This document shows positions 1 through 49,233 of a DNA stretch of 64,000 nt, piece by piece. The position numbers and the translations under genes are program-made. Positions within the stretch are counted from its first letter, which is position 1. Each line of letters begins with the position of its first letter. The notes under the pieces are model-generated. The model was not told the DNA's origin. It searched no databases and saw nothing but the letters and a program-made list of their open reading frames with translations. This DNA is from Escherichia coli (GTDB taxonomy: Bacteria > Pseudomonadota > Gammaproteobacteria > Enterobacterales > Enterobacteriaceae), in assembly GCF_001677475.2 (NCBI RefSeq), contig NZ_CP015229.1; one strand, written 5' to 3'.

Positions 1-513
1 CGATTCCCCTTTCAGCTTCGCTGCCGCGCTGTAGGTTAATGTGTTTACATGATAGCGGCTTTCGAGTTTACCGGACGGTCCGCCAATAATTGGTACGCAG
101 ATTAACTGCCGCGATTGCCCCGCCTGCGGTAAGTTTTCAACCAGTGCGCTCACCGCGCGACCCCAGGAAAAACCGACAATATCGCCAGGCTCCAGCAAGC
201 GATCCAGCAGTTGCGCGCCGTGTAACCCCATCATCGCCAGTTGAGTCTCTTCATCCTCATCATTTCCCGACACCACCACAACGTCTTTCAGGCCAAACTT
301 TTGCTTCAGTTGCTGCTCCAGCCAGAGATTTTCGTTGTAGTCATAGTTGATGGCGATGGTGACAATTCCCTGATCGCGGCCTCGTTTAAGCAAGCGGCTG
401 ATGGTGGTGCGGTAAATACCCAGTTCGCGCGCAATTTGCGCCTGCGTCATATCCTGTTCGTAATAGAGTTGGGCAATCTTCACAATCAAACGGATATCGT
501 CACTGTTTTCCAT
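1..513 (-). CDS. sorC: SorC-family transcriptional regulator, N-terminal part (gene runs off the left edge)
   Basis: Reverse-strand translation from ATG at 513 gives MENSDDIRLIVKIAQLYYEQDMTQAQIARELGIYRTTISRLLKRGRDQGIVTI..., a SorC/DeoR-type HTH; AGGAGG RBS upstream. Absent from the ORF track because there is no stop in the window. The sorC name is inferred from map position. Confidence 0.6.
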   Translation of the reverse strand, partial: MENSDDIRLIVKIAQLYYEQDMTQAQIARELGIYRTTISRLLKRGRDQGIVTIAINYDYNENLWLEQQLKQKFGLKDVVVVSGNDEDEETQLAMMGLHGAQLLDRLLEPGDIVGFSWGRAVSALVENLPQAGQSRQLICVPIIGGPSGKLESRYHVNTLTYSAAAKLKGES

Positions 514-860
514 TGCCGCCTCCTGGTTCTGCACATTTGTGCAAATACGCTTTCTCACCGCTTGATCTGATATAACCCCATCATGATGGCCTTTCAAAGC
601 GATTTTTCACTCTTTGCATGGGGAGAAATAGCGCTTTCTCTTGCACATTTGTTTCTCTGCGTAGTAGTCATCAGCACAGGTGTGCAGCGATTCGTAATAT
701 GTTGATTATCTTTATTTTGCCAGGCAAATTTGCATCGTACTTCCGGAGACACTTTTGTGATAAAAGGCGTGGCAGATCACATTTAATTTCGACGTTGCCG
801 CATAACCCTGTTTTTCCCCGCTAAGAGGTACGGTATATTCCGCGTTTTACAGGAGAATTT

Positions 861-1733
861 ATGCTGCCCGACTCATCAGTCCGTTTAAATAAATACATCA
901 GCGAAAGCGGAATTTGCTCACGCCGCGAAGCGGATCGCTATATCGAGCAAGGCAATGTGTTCCTTAATGGCAAGCGAGCCACCATTGGCGATCAGGTGAA
1001 ACCCGGCGACGTTGTGAAAGTAAACGGTCAGTTGATTGAGCCTCGGGAAGCCGAAGATTTGGTACTTATCGCCCTGAACAAGCCCGTCGGTATTGTCAGC
1101 ACCACCGAAGATGGCGAGCGCGATAACATTGTCGATTTCGTTAACCACAGCAAACGCGTGTTCCCGATTGGCCGCCTGGATAAAGACTCCCAGGGGCTGA
1201 TTTTCCTCACCAATCACGGCGATCTGGTGAATAAGATCCTCCGTGCGGGTAACGATCATGAGAAAGAGTATCTGGTGACGGTCGATAAACCGATTACCGA
1301 TGAATTTATTCGTGGTATGGGGGCGGGGGTGCCAATCCTCGGGACAGTGACTAAAAAGTGTAAAGTCAAAAAAGAAGCGCCGTTTGTCTTCCGCATTACC
1401 CTGGTGCAGGGGCTGAACCGTCAGATCCGTCGCATGTGCGAACACTTTGGTTACGAAGTGAAAAAGCTGGAACGTACGCGCATTATGAACGTCAGTTTAA
1501 GCGGCATTCCACTGGGTGAGTGGCGCGATTTAACTGACGATGAGTTAATCGACCTGTTTAAACTCATCGAAAATTCCTCTTCCGAGGCAAAACCTAAAGC
1601 GAAGGCCAAGCCGAAAACGGTAGGCATCAAACGTCCAGTCGTTAAGATGGAAAAAACGGCGGAAAAAGGCGGTCGCCCGGCAACCAACGGTAAGCGTTTT
1701 ACCTCGCCGGGGCGTAAAAAGAAGGGGCGCTGA
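861..1733 (+). CDS. rluF: 23S rRNA pseudouridine synthase RluF
   Basis: 290-aa ORF with N-terminal S4 domain and RluA/RsuA-type core ([10 protein letters not shown]); basic C-terminal tail; RBS aggag. Confidence 0.9.
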
Positions 1734-1779
1734 TTAACGCCTCAGACTGATGAAAACGTCCAAAAAGTGCTCGGACAGT

Positions 1780-1817
1780 CCCCTCGCCCCTTCGGGGAGA
1801 GGGTTAGGGTGAGGGGA
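1780..1817. repeat. GC-rich imperfect palindromic intergenic repeat
   Basis: cccctcgccccttcggggagagggttagggtgagggg between convergent rluF and yjbD; resembles small E. coli intergenic repeat families; may act as a terminator. Confidence 0.4.
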
Positions 1818-1865
1818 AGATTGTGTCCACACAGACGAGTGAAAATCTCAGGCGTTGATTGTTCA

Positions 1866-2138
1866 TTAGCGCCTGCCGCGCGTCGACGTATTTGCTGACC
1901 AGCTAAATGACGCTTCAGGATCCGGTTTATAAGCCTGCTTTTTCTTCAATTGGCGGGCTTTTTTCGCTTCAGCCTCACGCTCGACCATTAATTTATCGAT
2001 GTACTCTTTCTTAATGCTGTTGGTTTCGGAGTTGGTCAGTACGCGACCATGCGCAATCCGCGCCCGATCCAGCAGTGTTTTAAGTTCACGCTGCTCGCGT
2101 TCAGTCATCTCTTTTTGGGTAATACGCGGGAGTGCCAT
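1866..2138 (-). CDS. yjbD: DUF3811-family small protein YjbD
   Basis: 90-aa ORF in the conserved position between rluF and lysC; charged, lysine-rich. Confidence 0.75.
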   Translation of the reverse strand: MALPRITQKEMTEREQRELKTLLDRARIAHGRVLTNSETNSIKKEYIDKLMVEREAEAKKARQLKKKQAYKPDPEASFSWSANTSTRGRR

Positions 2139-2390
2139 GATGTTGCCCTCAGTGAGCCAGAGAGTTCAGTGTACGGGAATTCGTTTGCGAGCAGAACTGA
2201 TAATATTCATTTTGCCTTCTCTTAACTATTTATCTCTTTCGATAATTAATTAGAGATGCAGATAAAAAAATTAAAGGCAATTATTCTCCGATAAAGACGC
2301 TGGTTAACAGAGTACAGGCTCGTTTATTGATGAGCATAGTGACAAGAAAATCAATACGGCCCGAAATATAGCTTCCAGGCCATACAGTAT

Positions 2391-3740
2391 TTACTCAAAC
2401 AAATTAAAATGCAGCTTCTGCACCACCTGCTCGGCATCTTCGCCGGGCACCAGGAAGCACAGGTTATGGCTGGATGCGCCGTAACAAATCATGCGAATGT
2501 TGAACGGTTCCAGTACGCCGAATACCTCTTTGCCAACGCCGCAGGCTTTTGACAGGTCATTGCCAATCAACGCGACCAGTGCCAGACCTTCTTCCACCTC
2601 CACCCGGCACAGTGCGGAAAGCTCCATCAGCAGAGATTGCGTCAGCAACGTATCGCCAGTGGAGGTTGAACCGGTGGTATCAAGGGTTAATGCCACGCTC
2701 ACTTCTGACGTGGTGATTAAGTCTACCGAAATATTATGCCGCGCGAGGATGCCGAAAACTTCTGCGAGGAAGCCGCGAGAATGCAGCATATTCAGGCTGT
2801 GCAAAGTGAGCAGAGTCTGATTGCGACGAAGCGCCAGCGCGCGGAACAGCGGCGGATTTTCAGTTTTATTGCACACCAGCGTACCACCTGCGCGTGGGTC
2901 TTTGCTGGAGCCGACAAAGACCGGGATATCGCTGCGTACTGCGGGTAGCAACGTTGCCGGATGCAGTACTTTTGCACCAAAAGTTGCCATCTCTGCCGCT
3001 TCGGCAAACGCGATTTCATCAATGCGTTTTGCTGCGGAAACTACGCGTGGATCGGTGGTGTAGATGCCCGGGACGTCGGTCCAGATATCAACACGAGATG
3101 CGTGTAAAGCCTCCGCCAGCAAGGCTGCCGTATAATCGCTGCCGCCACGGCCAAGCGTCGTTGTACGACCTTTATTTTCGCTACCGATAAATCCCTGGGT
3201 GATCACTAAGCCTTCATTGAGGCGTGGGAGCAGCTGCAGAGCGGCCAGTTCCGCCAGCGCGGCTACATCTGGCTCTGCACGACCAAATCGGTCGTTGGTA
3301 CGCATCACTTTACGTACATCAAACCACTGTGCCTGAACATCGCGTTCGCGCAGGATCTCAACAAACAGCAGGGTCGACATCAGCTCGCCGTGGCTGACCA
3401 GTTCATCTGTCAGCGCCGGAGACGTTGCCAGCGCCGCTGCTTCTGCCAGAACAGTAATGTTCTCCAGCAGACGTTCAATCTCTTCACGGATAACGTTCGG
3501 GTAACGCAGACGTTCCAGAATGGCAAACTGGATGTTGCGGATAGCGTCGAGTTTTTCGAATCGCTCGCCAGGTTCCAGCCCTTCCGCTAAAGCGACCAGC
3601 AGATTAGTGATACCAGCAGAAGCCGAGAGGACTACTAAACGCACGTTGGCATCAGAAAGCACAATATCAGCGCTGCGGTTCATGGCGTCAAAATCAGCTA
3701 CGCTGGTACCGCCAAATTTGGAGACAACAATTTCAGACAT
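2391..3740 (-). CDS. lysC: Lysine-sensitive aspartokinase III
   Basis: 449-aa ORF starting MSEIVVSKFGGTSVADFDAM with C-terminal ACT regulatory domains. Confidence 0.95.
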   Translation of the reverse strand: MSEIVVSKFGGTSVADFDAMNRSADIVLSDANVRLVVLSASAGITNLLVALAEGLEPGERFEKLDAIRNIQFAILERLRYPNVIREEIERLLENITVLAEAAALATSPALTDELVSHGELMSTLLFVEILRERDVQAQWFDVRKVMRTNDRFGRAEPDVAALAELAALQLLPRLNEGLVITQGFIGSENKGRTTTLGRGGSDYTAALLAEALHASRVDIWTDVPGIYTTDPRVVSAAKRIDEIAFAEAAEMATFGAKVLHPATLLPAVRSDIPVFVGSSKDPRAGGTLVCNKTENPPLFRALALRRNQTLLTLHSLNMLHSRGFLAEVFGILARHNISVDLITTSEVSVALTLDTTGSTSTGDTLLTQSLLMELSALCRVEVEEGLALVALIGNDLSKACGVGKEVFGVLEPFNIRMICYGASSHNLCFLVPGEDAEQVVQKLHFNLFE

Positions 3741-4025
3741 AACTACCTCGTGTCAGGGGATCCATTTTCAGCCTTGGCACAAGGGAAGAGCGGAAGACGG
3801 GTGGGCGCAGAGCGATACTTCGCTACTATTTTCACCCAGAAGTGCTCCACCACTTGCGAAACGCCCGACTGCGAACGCTTCTGGTGACAACCCAGGGGAT
3901 TCAGCCCCTGTAGCCGATGATGAACGTGGCCAGCCGTTCAATCACCTCGGCGATGCACCCCCTCAGGTGTTATCACAGGACTGGCTCCTCCAACACCGTT
4001 ACTTGGGCAACGCGCCTCTTCTGGC
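3741..4025 (-). ncRNA. lysC 5' leader containing the lysine riboswitch (LYS element)
   Basis: Minus-strand leader reads ...GAGGCGCGUUGCCCAAGUAACGGUGUUGGAGGAGCCAGUCCUGUGAUAACACCUGAGGGGGUGCAUCGCCGAGGUGAUUGAACGG..., matching the recalled lysC lysine-riboswitch aptamer; boundaries approximate. Confidence 0.75.
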
Positions 4026-4264
4026 CTGCGCTAGCGCAGGTAGTACATTTATAAATAAAGGGTGAGCGGGGCGGTTGTCAACGATGGGGTCATGCGGATT
4101 TTTCATCCACTCCTGGCGGTCAGTAGTTCAGCTAATAAATGCTTCACTGCGCTAAGGGTTTACACTCAACATTACGCTAACGGCACTAAAACCATCACAT
4201 TTTTCTGTGACTGGCGCTACAATCTTCCAAAGTCACAATTCTCAAAATCAGAAGAGTATTGCTA

Positions 4265-5914
4265 ATGAAAAACATCAATCCAACGCAGACCGCTGCCTGG
4301 CAGGCACTACAGAAACACTTCGATGAAATGAAAGACGTTACGATCGCCGATCTTTTTGCTAAAGACGGCGATCGTTTTTCTAAGTTCTCCGCAACATTCG
4401 ACGATCAGATGCTGGTGGATTACTCCAAAAACCGCATCACTGAAGAGACGCTGGCGAAATTACAGGATCTGGCGAAAGAGTGCGATCTGGCGGGCGCGAT
4501 TAAGTCGATGTTCTCTGGCGAGAAGATCAACCGCACTGAAAACCGCGCCGTGCTGCACGTAGCGCTGCGTAATCGTAGCAATACCCCGATTCTGGTTGAT
4601 GGCAAAGACGTAATGCCAGAAGTCAACGCGGTGCTGGAGAAGATGAAAACCTTCTCGGAAGCGATTATTTCCGGTGAGTGGAAAGGTTATACCGGCAAAG
4701 CAATCACTGACGTAGTGAACATCGGGATCGGCGGTTCTGACCTCGGCCCATACATGGTGACCGAAGCACTGCGTCCGTACAAAAATCACCTGAACATGCA
4801 CTTTGTTTCTAACGTCGATGGCACCCACATCGCGGAAGTGCTGAAAAAAGTAAACCCGGAAACCACGCTGTTCCTGGTAGCATCTAAAACCTTCACCACT
4901 CAGGAAACCATGACCAACGCCCATAGTGCGCGTGACTGGTTCCTGAAAGCGGCAGGTGATGAAAAACACGTTGCGAAACATTTTGCGGCGCTCTCCACCA
5001 ATGCCAAAGCCGTTGGCGAGTTTGGTATTGATACTGCCAACATGTTCGAGTTCTGGGACTGGGTCGGCGGCCGTTACTCTTTGTGGTCAGCGATTGGCCT
5101 GTCGATTGTTCTCTCCATCGGCTTTGATAACTTCGTTGAACTGCTTTCTGGCGCACACGCGATGGACAAGCATTTCTCCACCACGCCTGCCGAGAAAAAC
5201 CTGCCTGTCCTGCTGGCGCTGATTGGCATCTGGTACAACAATTTCTTTGGCGCGGAAACTGAAGCGATTCTGCCGTATGACCAGTATATGCACCGTTTCG
5301 CGGCGTACTTCCAGCAGGGCAATATGGAGTCTAATGGTAAGTATGTTGACCGTAACGGTAACGTCGTGGATTACCAGACTGGTCCGATTATCTGGGGTGA
5401 ACCAGGTACTAACGGTCAGCACGCGTTCTACCAGCTGATCCACCAGGGAACTAAAATGGTACCGTGCGATTTCATCGCCCCGGCTATCACCCATAACCCG
5501 CTCTCTGATCACCACCAGAAACTGCTGTCTAACTTCTTTGCTCAGACCGAAGCGCTGGCGTTTGGTAAATCCCGCGAAGTGGTTGAGCAGGAATATCGCG
5601 ATCAGGGTAAAGATCCGGCAACGCTTGACTATGTAGTGCCGTTTAAAGTGTTCGAAGGTAACCGCCCGACCAACTCCATCCTGCTGCGCGAAATCACCCC
5701 GTTCAGCCTGGGGGCGTTGATTGCGCTGTATGAGCACAAAATCTTTACTCAGGGCGTGATCCTGAACATCTTCACCTTCGACCAGTGGGGCGTTGAGCTG
5801 GGTAAACAGCTGGCGAACCGTATTCTGCCGGAACTGAAAGATGACAAAGAAATCAGCAGCCACGATAGCTCGACCAATGGTCTGATTAACCGCTATAAAG
5901 CGTGGCGCGGTTAA
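4265..5914 (+). CDS. pgi: Glucose-6-phosphate isomerase
   Basis: 549 aa starting [24 protein letters not shown]; the ORF track's start at 4259 is a TTG two codons upstream. Confidence 0.95.
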
Positions 5915-5933
5915 TTTAAAAACCTTAATAACA

Positions 5934-5961
5934 ATGCCGACGTTATGTCGGCATTTTTTTA
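5934..5961 (+). terminator. Rho-independent terminator of pgi
   Basis: Hairpin atgccgacgttatgtcggcat followed by a T7 run. Confidence 0.8.
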
Positions 5962-6108
5962 TCAGATAAATCCCCTTGTCTGTGATTTAACGGAAATCAT
6001 ACCGTGAGGTTAATCCTAAAATAGATTTTTAATCGTTGTTTATTTCGGAAAATACGCAGATTAATTACTTTTGTTTTTATTTTAAGTTTATGATTTTTAT
6101 TGTTATTT

Positions 6109-6132
6109 AAATATAAGTTGAAACTTATATTT
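6109..6132. promoter_or_regulatory. Perfect dyad in the AT-rich yjbE upstream region (candidate operator)
   Basis: aaatataagtt-ga-aacttatattt, 11-bp perfect inverted arms, about 140 bp upstream of yjbE. Confidence 0.35.
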
Positions 6133-6268
6133 GATATTCATTCCAATTATCCTAAAACGCCATCGCTAATTCCCCGCGCCGTAATTCGCATGCTTTAGTT
6201 GTGTATACTCGATCCCGCCCGAAATGTTTTTGGGTAAATCTCCATTCATTCAATGAAGGGAAATTGTT

Positions 6269-6511
6269 ATGAAAAAAGTTCTGTATGGCATTTTTGCCAT
6301 ATCTGCGCTTGCGGCGACTTCTGCGTGGGCTGCACCTGTACAGGTGGGCGAAGCGGCAGGGTCGGCAGCAACGTCGGTTTCGGCGGGTAGTTCCTCCGCG
6401 ACCAGCGTCAGCACCGTAAGCTCGGCGGTGGGTGTCGCGCTCGCGGCAACCGGTGGCGGTGATGGTTCTAATACCGGGACCACAACAACCACAACCACCA
6501 GTACCCAGTAA
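6269..6511 (+). CDS. yjbE: Secreted Ser/Thr/Ala/Gly-rich low-complexity protein YjbE
   Basis: 80 aa with signal peptide (ALAATSAWA) and a Thr7 run; first gene of the yjbEFGH cluster. Confidence 0.75.
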
Positions 6512-6697
6512 TAAAGTATGTATCCCCAAAATAATTCGAGTTGCAGGAAGGCGACAAGCGAGTGAGTCCCCGGGAGCATAGATAACTATGTGACCGGGGT
6601 GAACGAGTGCGGTCACCGCATCTGCAGCTTGAAGTATGAAGGGGATTAACCATAACCACACTCCGGTGTGGTTATTCTGCCCCTCTGGAGAAGAGTC

Positions 6698-7333
6698 GTG
6701 AAGCGACCTGCACTCATTCTTATCTGTCTGCTATTACAGGCCTGTTCAGCCACGACTAAAGAGCTGGGCAATTCACTGTGGGACAGTCTGTTCGGCACGC
6801 CAGGCGTACAGCTGACGGATGATGATATTCAAAATATGCCCTACGCCAGCCAGTACATGCAGCTTAATGGCGGGCCGCAATTGTTTGTGGTGCTGGCCTT
6901 CGCTGAAGACGGACAACAAAAATGGGTCACTCAGGATCAGGCCACTCTCGTCACACAACATGGTCGTCTGGTGAAGACTTTGCTTGGTGGCGACAACCTG
7001 ATTGAAGTGAATAACCTTGCCACTGACCCGCTGATTAAACCCGCACAAATTGTTGATGGTGCAACATGGACGCGCACGATGGGCTGGACCGAGTACCAGC
7101 AGGTACGCTACGCCACCGCACGCTCAGTCTTCAAATGGGATGGCACCGATACCGTCAAAGTCGGCAGCGATGAAACCCCGGTTCGCGTGCTGGACGAAGA
7201 AGTCTCCACCGACCAGGCGCGCTGGCATAACCGCTATTGGATCGACAGCGAAGGGCAAATTCGCCAGTCGGAACAGTATCTCGGCGCGGATTATTTCCCG
7301 GTGAAAACCACTCTCATCAAGGCGGCAAAATAA
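6698..7333 (+). CDS. yjbF: Lipoprotein YjbF
   Basis: GTG start gives MKRPALILICLLLQAC with lipobox LQAC; RBS ggagaagag. The track ORF starts 10 codons upstream at 6668. Confidence 0.8.
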   Translation: MKRPALILICLLLQACSATTKELGNSLWDSLFGTPGVQLTDDDIQNMPYASQYMQLNGGPQLFVVLAFAEDGQQKWVTQDQATLVTQHGRLVKTLLGGDNLIEVNNLATDPLIKPAQIVDGATWTRTMGWTEYQQVRYATARSVFKWDGTDTVKVGSDETPVRVLDEEVSTDQARWHNRYWIDSEGQIRQSEQYLGADYFPVKTTLIKAAK

Positions 7334-8070
7334 TGATTAAACAAACTATTGTCGCGTTGCTTTTGAGTGTGGGAGCGTCATCGGTCTTCGCGGCAGGAAC
7401 CGTCAAGGTGTTCAGCAATGGCAGCAGTGAGGCCAAAACGCTAACGGGCGCAGAGCATTTAATCGATCTGGTAGGCCAACCGCGGCTGGCAAACAGCTGG
7501 TGGCCTGGTGCGGTGATTAGCGAAGAGCTGGCAACGGCGGCAGCATTGCGTCAGCAGCAGGCGTTGCTGACACGGCTGGCAGAACAGGGCGCAGATTCCA
7601 GCGCCGACGATGCCGCTGCGATTAACGCCTTACGCCAGCAAATTCAGGCGTTGAAAGTGACGGGCAGGCAAAAAATCAATTTTGATCCCGATATCGTCCG
7701 CGTTGCCGAACGCGGTAACCCGCCGTTGCAGGGCAACTACACGCTGTGGGTCGGACCACCGCCGTCCACGGTCACGCTGTTCGGGCTTATCAGCCGTCCT
7801 GGCAAGCAGTCATTCACTCCAGGTCGCGACGTGGCGAGCTATCTCTCTGACCAGAGCCTGCTCAGCGGTGCGGATCGCAGCTACGCATGGGTGGTTTACC
7901 CGGACGGACGCACGCAAAAAGCGCCGGTGGCTTACTGGAACAAGCGTCACGTAGAGCCGATGCCCGGCAGCATTATTTATGTTGGCCTCGCGGACTCCGT
8001 CTGGAGTGAGACGCCTGATGCCCTTAACGCCGACATTCTTCAGACTCTGACGCAGCGGATACCTCAATAA
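7333..8070 (+). CDS. yjbG: Periplasmic protein YjbG
   Basis: [20 protein letters not shown] signal peptide; ATG overlaps the yjbF stop (taATGa), indicating translational coupling. Confidence 0.8.
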
Positions 8071-10166
8071 TGAAAAAAAGACATCTGCTTAGCTTACTGG
8101 CGCTGGGCATTAGCACAGCTTGCTACGGCGAAACATATCCTGCGCCCATTGGTCCGTCGCAGTCGGATTTCGGTGGCGTAGGATTATTACAAACGCCCAC
8201 CGCGCGCATGGCGCGGGAAGGGGAGTTAAGCCTGAACTATCGAGATAACGATCAGTACCGTTATTACTCAGCTTCAGTGCAACTCTTCCCGTGGCTGGAA
8301 ACAACGCTGCGTTACACCGACGTGCGCACCCGGCAGTACAGCAGCGTCGAAGCGTTCTCTGGCGATCAAACGTATAAAGATAAAGCCTTCGATCTCAAAC
8401 TGCGTTTGTGGGAAGAGAGTTATTGGCTGCCGCAAGTGGCGGTTGGTGCGCGGGATATCGGCGGTACGGGGCTGTTTGATGCGGAATATCTTGTTGCCAG
8501 CAAAGCCTGGGGGCCGTTCGATTTTACACTCGGCCTGGGCTGGGGATATCTGGGCACCAGCGGTAACGTGAAAAATCCGCTCTGTTCAGCCAGTGATAAA
8601 TATTGCTATCGCGATAACAGCTACAAACAGGCGGGATCTATCGACGGTAGCCAGATGTTCCACGGTCCTGCCTCACTGTTTGGCGGCGTGGAATACCAGA
8701 CATCCTGGCAGCCGCTGCGCCTGAAACTGGAGTATGAAGGCAATAATTATCAGCAGGATTTTGCCGGGAAGCTGGAGCAAAAAAGTAAGTTTAACGTCGG
8801 GGCGATTTATCGCGTTACCGATTGGGCCGACGTTAACCTTAGCTATGAACGTGGCAACACCTTTATGTTTGGCGTCACGCTGCGCACCAACTTTAACGAT
8901 CTGCGCCCTTCTTACAACGATAACGCCCGCCCGCAATATCAACCGCAGCCGCAGGATGCCATTTTGCAGCATTCGGTGGTGGCGAATCAGTTAACGCTGT
9001 TGAAATACAATGCCGGACTTGCCGATCCGCAGATCCAGGCGAAAGGCGATACGCTGTATGTTACCGGCGAGCAGGTGAAATATCGTGATTCGCGTGAAGG
9101 GATCATCCGTGCTAATCGGATCGTGATGAACGATCTGCCGGATGGGATCAAAACGATCCGCATTACGGAAAACCGCCTTAACATGCCGCAGGTGACGACG
9201 GAAACCGATGTCGCCAGCCTGAAAAATCATCTCGCCGGAGAGCCGTTGGGCCACGAAACGACGCTGGCGCAAAAACGCGTCGAGCCAGTGGTTCCGAAGT
9301 CCACCGAGCAGGGCTGGTATATCGACAAATCACGCTATGATTTCCATATCGATCCGGTGCTGAACCAGTCGGTCGGTGGCCCGGAAAACTTTTACATGTA
9401 TCAGCTGGGCGTGATGGGAACGGCAGATTTGTGGCTGACGGACCATCTGCTGACCACCGGCAGCCTGTTTGCAAATCTTGCCAACAACTACGACAAGTTT
9501 AACTACACCAATCCGCCGCAGGACTCGCACTTACCGCGCGTTCGTACCCATGTGCGCGAGTATGTGCAGAACGATGTCTATGTGAATAACCTGCAAGCCA
9601 ACTACTTCCAGCATCTGGGCAACGGCTTCTACGGTCAGGTCTATGGAGGTTATCTCGAAACCATGTTTGGCGGTGCGGGGGCAGAAGTGTTGTATCGTCC
9701 GCTGGACAGCAACTGGGCGTTTGGTCTGGATGCCAACTACGTTAAACAGCGCGACTGGCGTAGTGCAAAAGATATGATGAAATTCACCGACTACAGCGTG
9801 AAAACCGGACATCTGACCGCCTACTGGACGCCATCTTTCGCTCAGGATGTGTTAGTGAAAGCCAGCGTCGGGCAGTATCTGGCAGGGGATAAAGGCGGCA
9901 CGCTGGAGATCGCTAAACGCTTTGACAGCGGCGTGGTGGTTGGCGGCTATGCCACGATCACCAACGTTTCGAAAGAGGAGTACGGCGAAGGGGACTTCAC
10001 CAAAGGCGTGTATGTCTCTGTACCGTTGGATCTCTTCTCGTCTGGCCCGACACGCAGCCGTGCGGCGATTGGCTGGACGCCGCTGACGCATGACGGTGGT
10101 CAGCAACTTGGGCGTAAGTTCCAGTTGTATGATATGACCAGCGACCGTAGCGTCAATTTCCGCTAA
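8070..10166 (+). CDS. yjbH: Outer-membrane beta-barrel-like protein YjbH
   Basis: 698 aa; ATG overlaps the yjbG stop; signal peptide with lipobox-like STAC; C-terminal F (NFR) typical of outer-membrane proteins. Confidence 0.8.
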
Positions 10167-10212
10167 GTCATGGGAAAGGTGCCAGTTTTCGCAATCACTG
10201 GCACCCTCATTC

Positions 10213-10461
10213 TTAATGGCCTGTTGAGCCATCAGGAACGCAGTTCACCCCCGGTTTGCGATCTGGTGTGTAAAGGCGAAAACATTCTGTCTTCCTGTCC
10301 GTCGATATCGGTTGCAGGTCTGGTTGCCTGAGCGACTGGGCCATCATTGGGCTGGAGACATTGCTTTGCGGTAGGTCGGCTTTATCAGCAGTACCGAACG
10401 GACCAGCATAAGCAGGAAGAACAGAGACTGATAACATCAAAGCAGCAAAATAAGGCTTCAT
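10213..10461 (-). CDS. yjbT: Small secreted protein YjbT
   Basis: MKPYFAALMLSVSVLPAYAG signal peptide preceded by aggtgg RBS; an alternative start 10 codons upstream (10491) has a poor RBS. Confidence 0.6.
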   Translation of the reverse strand: MKPYFAALMLSVSVLPAYAGPFGTADKADLPQSNVSSPMMAQSLRQPDLQPISTDRKTECFRLYTPDRKPGVNCVPDGSTGH

Positions 10462-10589
10462 TTTTACCACCTTTATCAGGTTACGTTTCATTTGTTCCAG
10501 AGGAACATTGTCGATTTTTCGCGCATTGCTGGTGGCTGGGAATCACCTGAATGGGTGATTTTTGCAGTACAGGCTATGGTGCGGTTTGT

Positions 10590-10665
10590 CTTGCCGGATG
10601 CGCCGCCAGGCGCGGCTTATCCGGCCTACGGGTAGGACGGATAAGGCGTTCACGCCGCATCCGGC
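10590..10665. repeat. REP/BIME cluster
   Basis: gccggatgcgccgccaggcgcggcttatccggcctac and gtaggacggataaggcgttcacgccgcatccggc. Confidence 0.85.
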
Positions 10666-10780
10666 GCTGGCGGGAGGCACCATCTAACACCAGGTTGAAC
10701 AAAACATACACAAAAAATATAGATCTCCGTCACATTTTTGCGTTATACAGGAAGCTCGCCACTGTGAAGGAGGTACTGCT

Positions 10781-11191
10781 ATGACGTCACTCTCTCGTCC
10801 GCGCGTGGAGTTTATCTCCACCATTTTGCAGACCGTACTCAATCTTGGCCTGTTGTGCCTCGGCCTGATTTTGGTTGTCTTCCTCGGCAAAGAAACGGTG
10901 CATCTGGCTGATGTGCTGTTCGCGCCAGAACAAACCAGCAAATATGAGCTGGTAGAAGGACTGGTGGTTTACTTTCTCTATTTCGAATTTATCGCGCTGA
11001 TTGTGAAGTACTTTCAGTCCGGTTTTCACTTCCCGCTACGTTACTTTGTCTATATTGGGATCACCGCCATTGTGCGCTTGATCATCGTCGATCATAAATC
11101 GCCACTGGATGTGTTGATCTACTCGGCTGCGATCCTGTTACTGGTAATCACCCTGTGGCTGTGTAATTCGAAACGGCTGAAGCGGGAGTAA
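10781..11191 (+). CDS. psiE: Phosphate-starvation-inducible inner membrane protein PsiE
   Basis: 136-aa multi-TM protein; strong RBS gaaggagg. Confidence 0.85.
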
Positions 11192-11234
11192 AAAGACAGC
11201 ACGCCGAACTGGCGCGGCGTGCTGGACAGGAAGA

Positions 11235-48739: not shown

Positions 48740-49204
48740 ATGGAAAAGAAATTACCCCGCATTAAAGCGCTGCTAACCCCCGGCGAAGTGGCAAAACGCA
48801 GCGGTGTGGCGGTATCGGCGCTGCATTTCTATGAAAGCAAAGGGTTGATTAGCAGTATCCGTAATAGTGGCAATCAGCGGCGATATAAACGTGATGTGTT
48901 GCGATATGTCGCAATTATCAAAATCGCTCAGCGTATTGGCATTCCTCTCGCGACCATTGGTGAAGCGTTTGGCGTATTGCCCGAAGGGCATACGTTAAGT
49001 GCGAAAGAGTGGAAACAGCTTTCGTCCCAATGGCGAGAAGAGTTAGATCGGCGCATTCATACCTTAGTGGCGCTGCGTGACGAACTGGACGGATGTATTG
49101 GTTGTGGCTGCCTTTCGCGCAGTGATTGCCCGTTGCGTAACCCGGGCGACCGCTTAGGAGAAGAAGGTACCGGCGCACGCTTGCTGGAAGATGAACAAAA
49201 CTAA
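48740..49204 (+). CDS. soxR: Redox-sensing MerR-family regulator SoxR
   Basis: 154 aa; MerR HTH; [2Fe-2S] cysteine cluster [16 protein letters not shown]. Confidence 0.97.
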
Positions 49205-49233
49205 AGCGCCACAAGGGCGCTTTAGTTTGTTTT
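49202..49233 (+). terminator. Terminator of soxR
   Basis: Hairpin taaagcgccacaagggcgcttta followed by a T-rich tract. Confidence 0.7.

Follow-up and report, generated by a model that had tools for sequence, protein, structure and literature searches.

The lysine riboswitch in the lysC leader of an Escherichia coli genome: aptamer, expression platform and conservation

The window analysed here is a stretch of 64,000 nucleotides of Escherichia coli DNA (contig NZ_CP015229.1), in which the minus-strand gene lysC has the plus-strand gene pgi as its divergent neighbour. A preliminary description, made from the letters alone, had placed a lysine riboswitch in the minus-strand 5' UTR of lysC, at 3741-4025. 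The question raised by this locus is whether that leader carries a real and intact riboswitch and through which outputs such a switch would act on the gene. The lysC leader is a real, intact and ordinary E. coli lysine riboswitch; the element is already known and nothing new is claimed for it.

The regulated gene, lysC (2391-3740, minus strand), is an open reading frame of 449 amino acids for the lysine-sensitive aspartokinase 3. Its identity, as it had been named beforehand, is confirmed by the NCBIfam equivalog NF006570, with a score of 766.9 bits (cut-off 455). In Ghosh et al. 2024 (PMC10946432) the lysC mRNA is numbered from its start site, with G309 at the AUG, G349, U354-357, A364 and RNase E Site1 at 250-253. 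This numbering fixes the transcription start (+1, a G) at position 4046 on the minus strand: with +1 = 4046 the base given for every named published position agrees with the sequence, and UCUU is found at 250-253. An RNA position is therefore 4047 minus the window coordinate, and the lysC AUG occupies RNA 307-309 (3738-3740, minus strand), at the published G309 pause and Rho termination site (PMC10946432). Read from the sequence with the start site given, the probable lysC promoter consists of a -35 hexamer TTGACA (4076-4081, minus strand) and a weak -10 hexamer TTATTT (4053-4058, minus strand), 17 nt from the -35; GTTGACA is kept at the same place in the Enterobacterales relatives. The poor -10 hexamer explains why a consensus promoter scan missed the lysC promoter. 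A leader-peptide attenuator was also considered for this leader and rejected: the sole minus-strand open reading frame within it (3768-3941, TTG start, 57 amino acids) overlaps the aptamer helices described below and is taken as spurious.

We scanned the window with the covariance models of all Rfam families. The Lysine family (RF00168) matches at 3832-4028 on the minus strand, with 99.5 bits, where the gathering score is 30. The match is untruncated and spans model positions 1-182 of 182; its E-value is 5.7e-26 in a 12-kb search (window 1-12000) and 3.1e-25 in the whole 64-kb window. A scan with this family was the check proposed in the preliminary description, and a very strong full-length match on the predicted strand bears its claim out. 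A search with three conserved core blocks combined into one pattern (AGAGGCGC...CGCCGA...TGTCAC) gives a single match in the window, and none of 100 shuffled versions contains it. The site belongs to the 5' UTR of the gene: the 3' strand of P1 ends 95 nt upstream of the lysC AUG, on the same strand. The span 3741-4025 runs from one base 5' of P1 (5' strand at 4018-4024) to the base before the lysC ATG (3738-3740), and with these limits it covers both the aptamer and the expression platform. The Rfam match extends 3 nt further at its 5' end, and the transcription start (4046) lies 21 nt beyond the span; a structured RNA was recognisable from the raw sequence with nearly exact boundaries. Nothing was found that contradicts the identification as a lysine riboswitch.

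Other RNA families are also found in the window. The enterobacterial sRNA STnc430 (5923-6072, minus strand, 77.7 bits in Rfam) lies just past the pgi stop codon on the opposite strand, and its terminal G+C-rich hairpin could serve as a pgi terminator too. The Hfq-binding sRNA sraL (49197-49337, minus strand, 153.3 bits) and two copies of the nucleoid-associated RNA naRNA4 (15551-15621 and 56589-56660, plus strand, 62.2 and 73.8 bits) score above their gathering scores.

The structure of the aptamer (RF00168, 3832-4028, minus strand) was obtained by mapping the Rfam structure onto the E. coli sequence. All helices are on the minus strand: P1 is formed by 4018-4024 with 3836-3842, P2 by 4005-4013 with 3950-3958 and 3991-3998 with 3965-3972, P3 by 3935-3946 with 3916-3926, P4 by 3905-3915 with 3889-3898, and P5 by 3883-3887 with 3847-3851. 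In total 50 pairs were counted in 6 helix segments, which build the five-helix P1-P5 junction. For comparison, relatives were gathered by scanning one genome per species with the core-block pattern, which gave at least 120 stretches. An aspartokinase homologue lies downstream in 18 among the matches listed. The comparison is based on 14 of these, a small set: 9 Enterobacterales or close relatives and 5 other Gammaproteobacteria, which together with E. coli make an alignment of 15 sequences.

Across these 15 lysC-linked sequences, standard pairs are found in 88.9% of the cells, compared with 41-48% in controls whose 3' partners had been slid along by 1-3 columns. There are 26 pairs in which both sides change, against 12-19 in the slid controls and a mean of 19.4 after shuffling, and the observed covariation score of the aptamer was reached by 0 of 500 shuffles. 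The covariation is carried by P2, P3 and P4; P1 hardly changes and P5 does not change at all, which makes both uninformative in this respect. The core blocks AGAGGCGC, CGCCGA, CUGUCAC and GGUGGAG.GCUUCU are all present in the window and invariant across the 15 sequences, which for the first three is partly by construction, since these blocks served to fetch the relatives. The purine-rich internal loop of P2 (A25, G27, A29, A66, G67-G70) and the junction J5/1 lie outside the search pattern and are invariant too.

The loops of P2 and P3 contain complementary bases: GCCAG in L2 (RNA 62-66; 3981-3985, minus strand) and CUGGC in L3 (RNA 114-118; 3929-3933, minus strand). The complementarity is kept in relatives with unrelated sequences (UCUAUA/UAUAGA, GACUAUA/UAUAGUC and CACUAUU/AAUAGUG), and the longest complementary run between L2 and L3 has a mean length of 6.0 within a sequence and 4.9 between sequences, although this is a crude measure. 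This covarying complementarity fits the loop-loop (kissing) contact known for the lysine riboswitch class, which the two loops would form here. The P5 loop (3852-3882, minus strand) is an insertion hot spot, with inserts of about 18 to 140 nt. In E. coli it has 18 extra nt compared with the Rfam consensus, and compared with E. coli it is longer by about 25 nt in Enterobacter sp. (L059), about 65 nt in Klebsiella sp. (L063) and about 120 nt in Pantoea sp. IMH (L088).

The lysC-pgi intergenic region (3741-4264) is identical to that of K-12 MG1655 at 524 of 524 bp, and the published riboswitch experiments therefore apply directly here. The lysC coding sequence differs from that of K-12 at 19 of 1350 nt, so the host strain is not K-12. 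Direct and selective binding of L-lysine and lysine-dependent repression have been published for the K-12 sequence (PMC10946432); as MG1655 is the strain in which the riboswitch was characterised, the element was rightly described beforehand as a known one. Among complete E. coli genomes, the lysC leader region is matched in 5425 of 5426 (one genome has no match), and each of these 5425 carries the 306-nt leader at 99% identity or more. One of the leader-region matches is on a record classed as a plasmid. It had also been suggested that the element is easily missed in a protein-centred annotation. This holds in part: the PGAP-annotated RefSeq E. coli genomes that were examined have a 'riboswitch' feature at exactly 3832-4028, whereas the feature table of the K-12 record NC_000913.3 has none in the lysC leader (4233234-4233757; L123), so users of that reference record could overlook the element. 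In E. coli EECO1006, a blood isolate (NZ_CP090319.1; L122, 3215-4083), an IS1 element is inserted just after the aptamer, behind about RNA 213, and separates it from the expression platform and lysC. This insertion should uncouple lysC from the riboswitch.

The reading of the leader as a chance or decayed aptamer-like sequence, which no longer works as a switch, has a vanishingly small probability. We found no point that supports it. Against it stand the E-value of 5.7e-26 across the full model, the conserved core blocks, every one of which is intact and invariant across relatives, and the fact that the leader is the same as the experimentally active K-12 leader and at least 99% conserved across 5425 genomes. 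The full-length Rfam match, the covariation of the aptamer and the identity with K-12 refute this reading. The best explanation as a whole, in which we have very high confidence, is that the 306-nt 5' UTR of the aspartokinase III mRNA contains the E. coli lysC lysine riboswitch and that this acts in cis as an OFF switch.

The expression platform lies between the aptamer and the start codon. Its first element is a small hairpin (RNA 219-239; 3808-3828, minus strand), which is present in every fold and is enclosed by the anti-sequester helix; its arms (CGUAG...CUACG/CUGCG) are recognisable in relatives. A C/U-rich switching strand follows (RNA 244-268; 3779-3803, minus strand), which pairs with RNA 190-214 (3833-3857), that is, with the 3' strand of P5, the junction J5/1 and the 3' strand of P1. 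The switching strand contains RNase E Site1, UCUU (RNA 250-253; 3794-3797, minus strand; position from PMC10946432), and it adjoins, on the 3' side, the centre (about 240) of the published rut region (PMC10946432). The agreement of Site1, rut and G309 with the published landmarks is at the level of the sequence only: UCUU stands in a C/U-rich stretch poor in G, and G309 falls on the last base of the AUG. Further downstream, the fold predicts a helix that sequesters the Shine-Dalgarno region, between RNA 263-275 (CCUUGUGCCAAGG) and RNA 290-301 (CCUGACACGAGG) (3746-3784, minus strand); it covers the Shine-Dalgarno bases GAGG (RNA 298-301; 3746-3749, minus strand). Two blocks of the platform, GCUCUUCCCUUGUGCCAAGGCUGA and CCUGACACGAGGU, hardly vary among the Enterobacterales.

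The minimum-free-energy fold of the leader includes the anti-P1 or anti-sequester helix (190-214 with 244-268). The probable exact register of this helix, 196-203 with 256-263 and 210-214 with 244-248, keeps 9-12 of 12 pairs in nine relatives and 7 of 12 in the most divergent one, and Acerihabitans has a two-sided change, from GGAGC/GCUCU to GGGGC/GCCCC. For the sequester helix, nine relatives retain 9-11 of its 11 pairs, and Acerihabitans has C-G in place of a U-G pair. Most of this conservation of the platform helices comes from positions that do not vary, so that these 10 sequences offer few truly compensatory changes. Both helices use RNA 263-268 and they are therefore mutually exclusive. 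The sequester helix is predicted when the 3' part of the aptamer is made unavailable for pairing; the fold that contains it then has -20.0 kcal/mol, 3.4 less stable than an alternative of -23.4 kcal/mol in which the Shine-Dalgarno sequence pairs with the early coding sequence. Since this optimum lacks the sequestering helix, the OFF structure is not proved by folding energies taken by themselves. In a fold of a shorter segment on its own, the sequester helix and a shorter anti-P1 register occur together, and in the minimum-free-energy register Site1 (250-253) lies in an internal loop and not in a continuous duplex. Two other candidates were rejected. The anti-P1 register 196-205 with 249-258 and 209-214 with 240-245, obtained by folding RNA 196-325 alone, keeps only 11-15 of 15 pairs, with 201-253 broken in four sequences; on inspection of the sequences, the pairs of a mini-hairpin CCUUG-UGC-CAAGG (263-275) break in P. 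stewartii, Enterobacter L059 and Acerihabitans. The identity of the aptamer, its helices, the loop-loop contact, the two competing helices and the sequence identity with K-12 are established in this analysis.

The features of the platform match the published lysC model (PMC10946432). In that model, the lysine-free lysC leader forms an anti-sequestering (anti-P1) stem, which permits translation and keeps the RNase E sites and the rut region covered, while lysine binding leads to the formation of P1, to sequestration of the Shine-Dalgarno sequence and to cleavage by RNase E at Site1 and Site2 (PMC10946432). Rho terminates with NusG at the G309 pause, and in the published assays both were needed for the G309 product (PMC10946432). 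The lysine dependence, the RNase E cleavage and the Rho termination are taken from these experiments on the identical K-12 leader (PMC10946432), and the same behaviour would be expected here. Without lysine, RNA 190-214 would pair with RNA 244-268 and prevent the formation of P1; this helix would occupy CCUUGUG, leaving the Shine-Dalgarno sequence free and lysC translated, and would bury the region where RNase E and Rho enter. Lysine bound to the five-helix aptamer would lock P1 and the junction and release RNA 244-268. The stretch CCUUGUG...GG (263-275) could then pair with CC..UG.CACGAGG (290-301) and hide the Shine-Dalgarno sequence, and the single-stranded C/U-rich segment would be exposed to RNase E at Site1 (UCUU, 250-253). 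The same exposed segment would be open to Rho, with termination at the G309 pause. Read in this way, the lysC riboswitch is a classic example of a single RNA switch with three outputs: translation, RNase E decay and Rho termination.

Concerning the output, two other readings were weighed. A switch of the Bacillus type (L box) would act through a lysine-induced intrinsic transcription terminator in the leader, as may be suggested by the aptamer, which is in the same Rfam family as that of the B. subtilis lysC leader, and by the fact that B. subtilis riboswitches mostly use intrinsic terminators (PMC10946432). A terminator scan of the lysC strand of the leader (3741-4046, minus strand) found no G+C-rich stem followed by a U run, and the sole minus-strand terminator-like site in the scan, at 4281-4295, is upstream of the promoter. 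The platform has instead a conserved helix over the Shine-Dalgarno sequence, and we consider such a terminator switch highly unlikely. The other reading keeps the same riboswitch and takes Rho-dependent premature termination, at a rut region exposed by lysine, as its main output in the cell, with the translation block and RNase E as secondary effects. The authors of the published work suggest that Rho outweighs RNase E for mRNA levels (PMC10946432), and the C-rich, G-poor segment at about RNA 240-265 is nearly invariant in Enterobacterales, but the conserved helix that covers the Shine-Dalgarno sequence argues for selection on translation control. A leading role of Rho is thus possible, though we hold it to be the less probable case. 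As the same structural switch drives all three outputs, it would refine and not replace the explanation preferred here, the cis-acting lysine OFF switch.

Upstream of the aptamer the leader has a further hairpin, CCUGCGC-UA-GCGCAGG (RNA 7-22; 4025-4040, minus strand), with a predicted energy of -9.3 kcal/mol. It abuts P1, lies outside the Rfam model, and has a perfect stem near the 5' end of the mRNA. Of 10 Enterobacterales lysC leaders, 8 have a hairpin at this place; its sequence varies between them, with compensatory changes that keep the pairing (CCUGUGC/GCACAGG and CUUGCGCAC/GUGCGCAAG are two of the forms). We tentatively suggest that it might be a functional third module, which either blocks the 5'-end-dependent attack of RNase E or stacks on P1 and tunes the lysine threshold; this is a speculative proposal. 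If the hairpin does block the 5' end, decay would start only at the internal sites that are gated by the riboswitch.

Compared with known systems, the closest is the lysC riboswitch of E. coli K-12 MG1655 (Caron et al. 2012, as cited in PMC10946432), which is the same element: all published landmarks fit, and there is no difference between the two leaders. The leaders from Enterobacter, Klebsiella, Pantoea, Serratia, Acerihabitans and Rosenbergiella (L059, L063, L088, L069, L078, L095, L051 and L067) have the aptamer and the blocks GCUCUUCCCUUGUGCCAAGGCUGA and CCUGACACGAGGU in common with the window. Most of the other Enterobacterales lysC leaders also have the 5' hairpin, and the platform of Rosenbergiella is the most divergent. 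They differ in the P5 loop, with insertions of very different length, in a variable hairpin between the two platform blocks, and in the distance from the Shine-Dalgarno sequence to the start codon. An E. coli-like platform is also present in a contig from a soil metagenome bin labelled 'Proteobacteria bacterium' (JAGTSE010000062.1; L119), whose LysC shares 90% identity with the E. coli protein; upstream of P1 this contig has a different sequence, without the 5' hairpin. Despite the vague label, this is probably an enterobacterial contig. In distant Gammaproteobacteria the platform is different, and a CUCUGCUUAU strand, read from the sequences, again faces a AUAAGGAGAG Shine-Dalgarno region.

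The lysC leader of Bacillus subtilis (L box or LYS element) contains the same five-helix lysine-binding aptamer of RF00168. The gene behind this L box leader is also that of an aspartokinase. The two systems differ in their platforms: riboswitches of Bacillus generally use an intrinsic terminator (PMC10946432), whereas the E. coli lysC leader has none and combines sequestration of the Shine-Dalgarno sequence with RNase E and Rho. Within E. coli, thiC, thiM, ribB and btuB are likewise translational OFF switches, in which the ligand also lowers the mRNA through Rho and/or RNase E (PMC10946432), but they have other ligands and other aptamers. In thiC and ribB, as in lysC, the Rho or RNase E site is exposed directly by the RNA structure, whereas in thiM and btuB, unlike lysC, mRNA is lost only as a consequence of blocked translation (PMC10946432).
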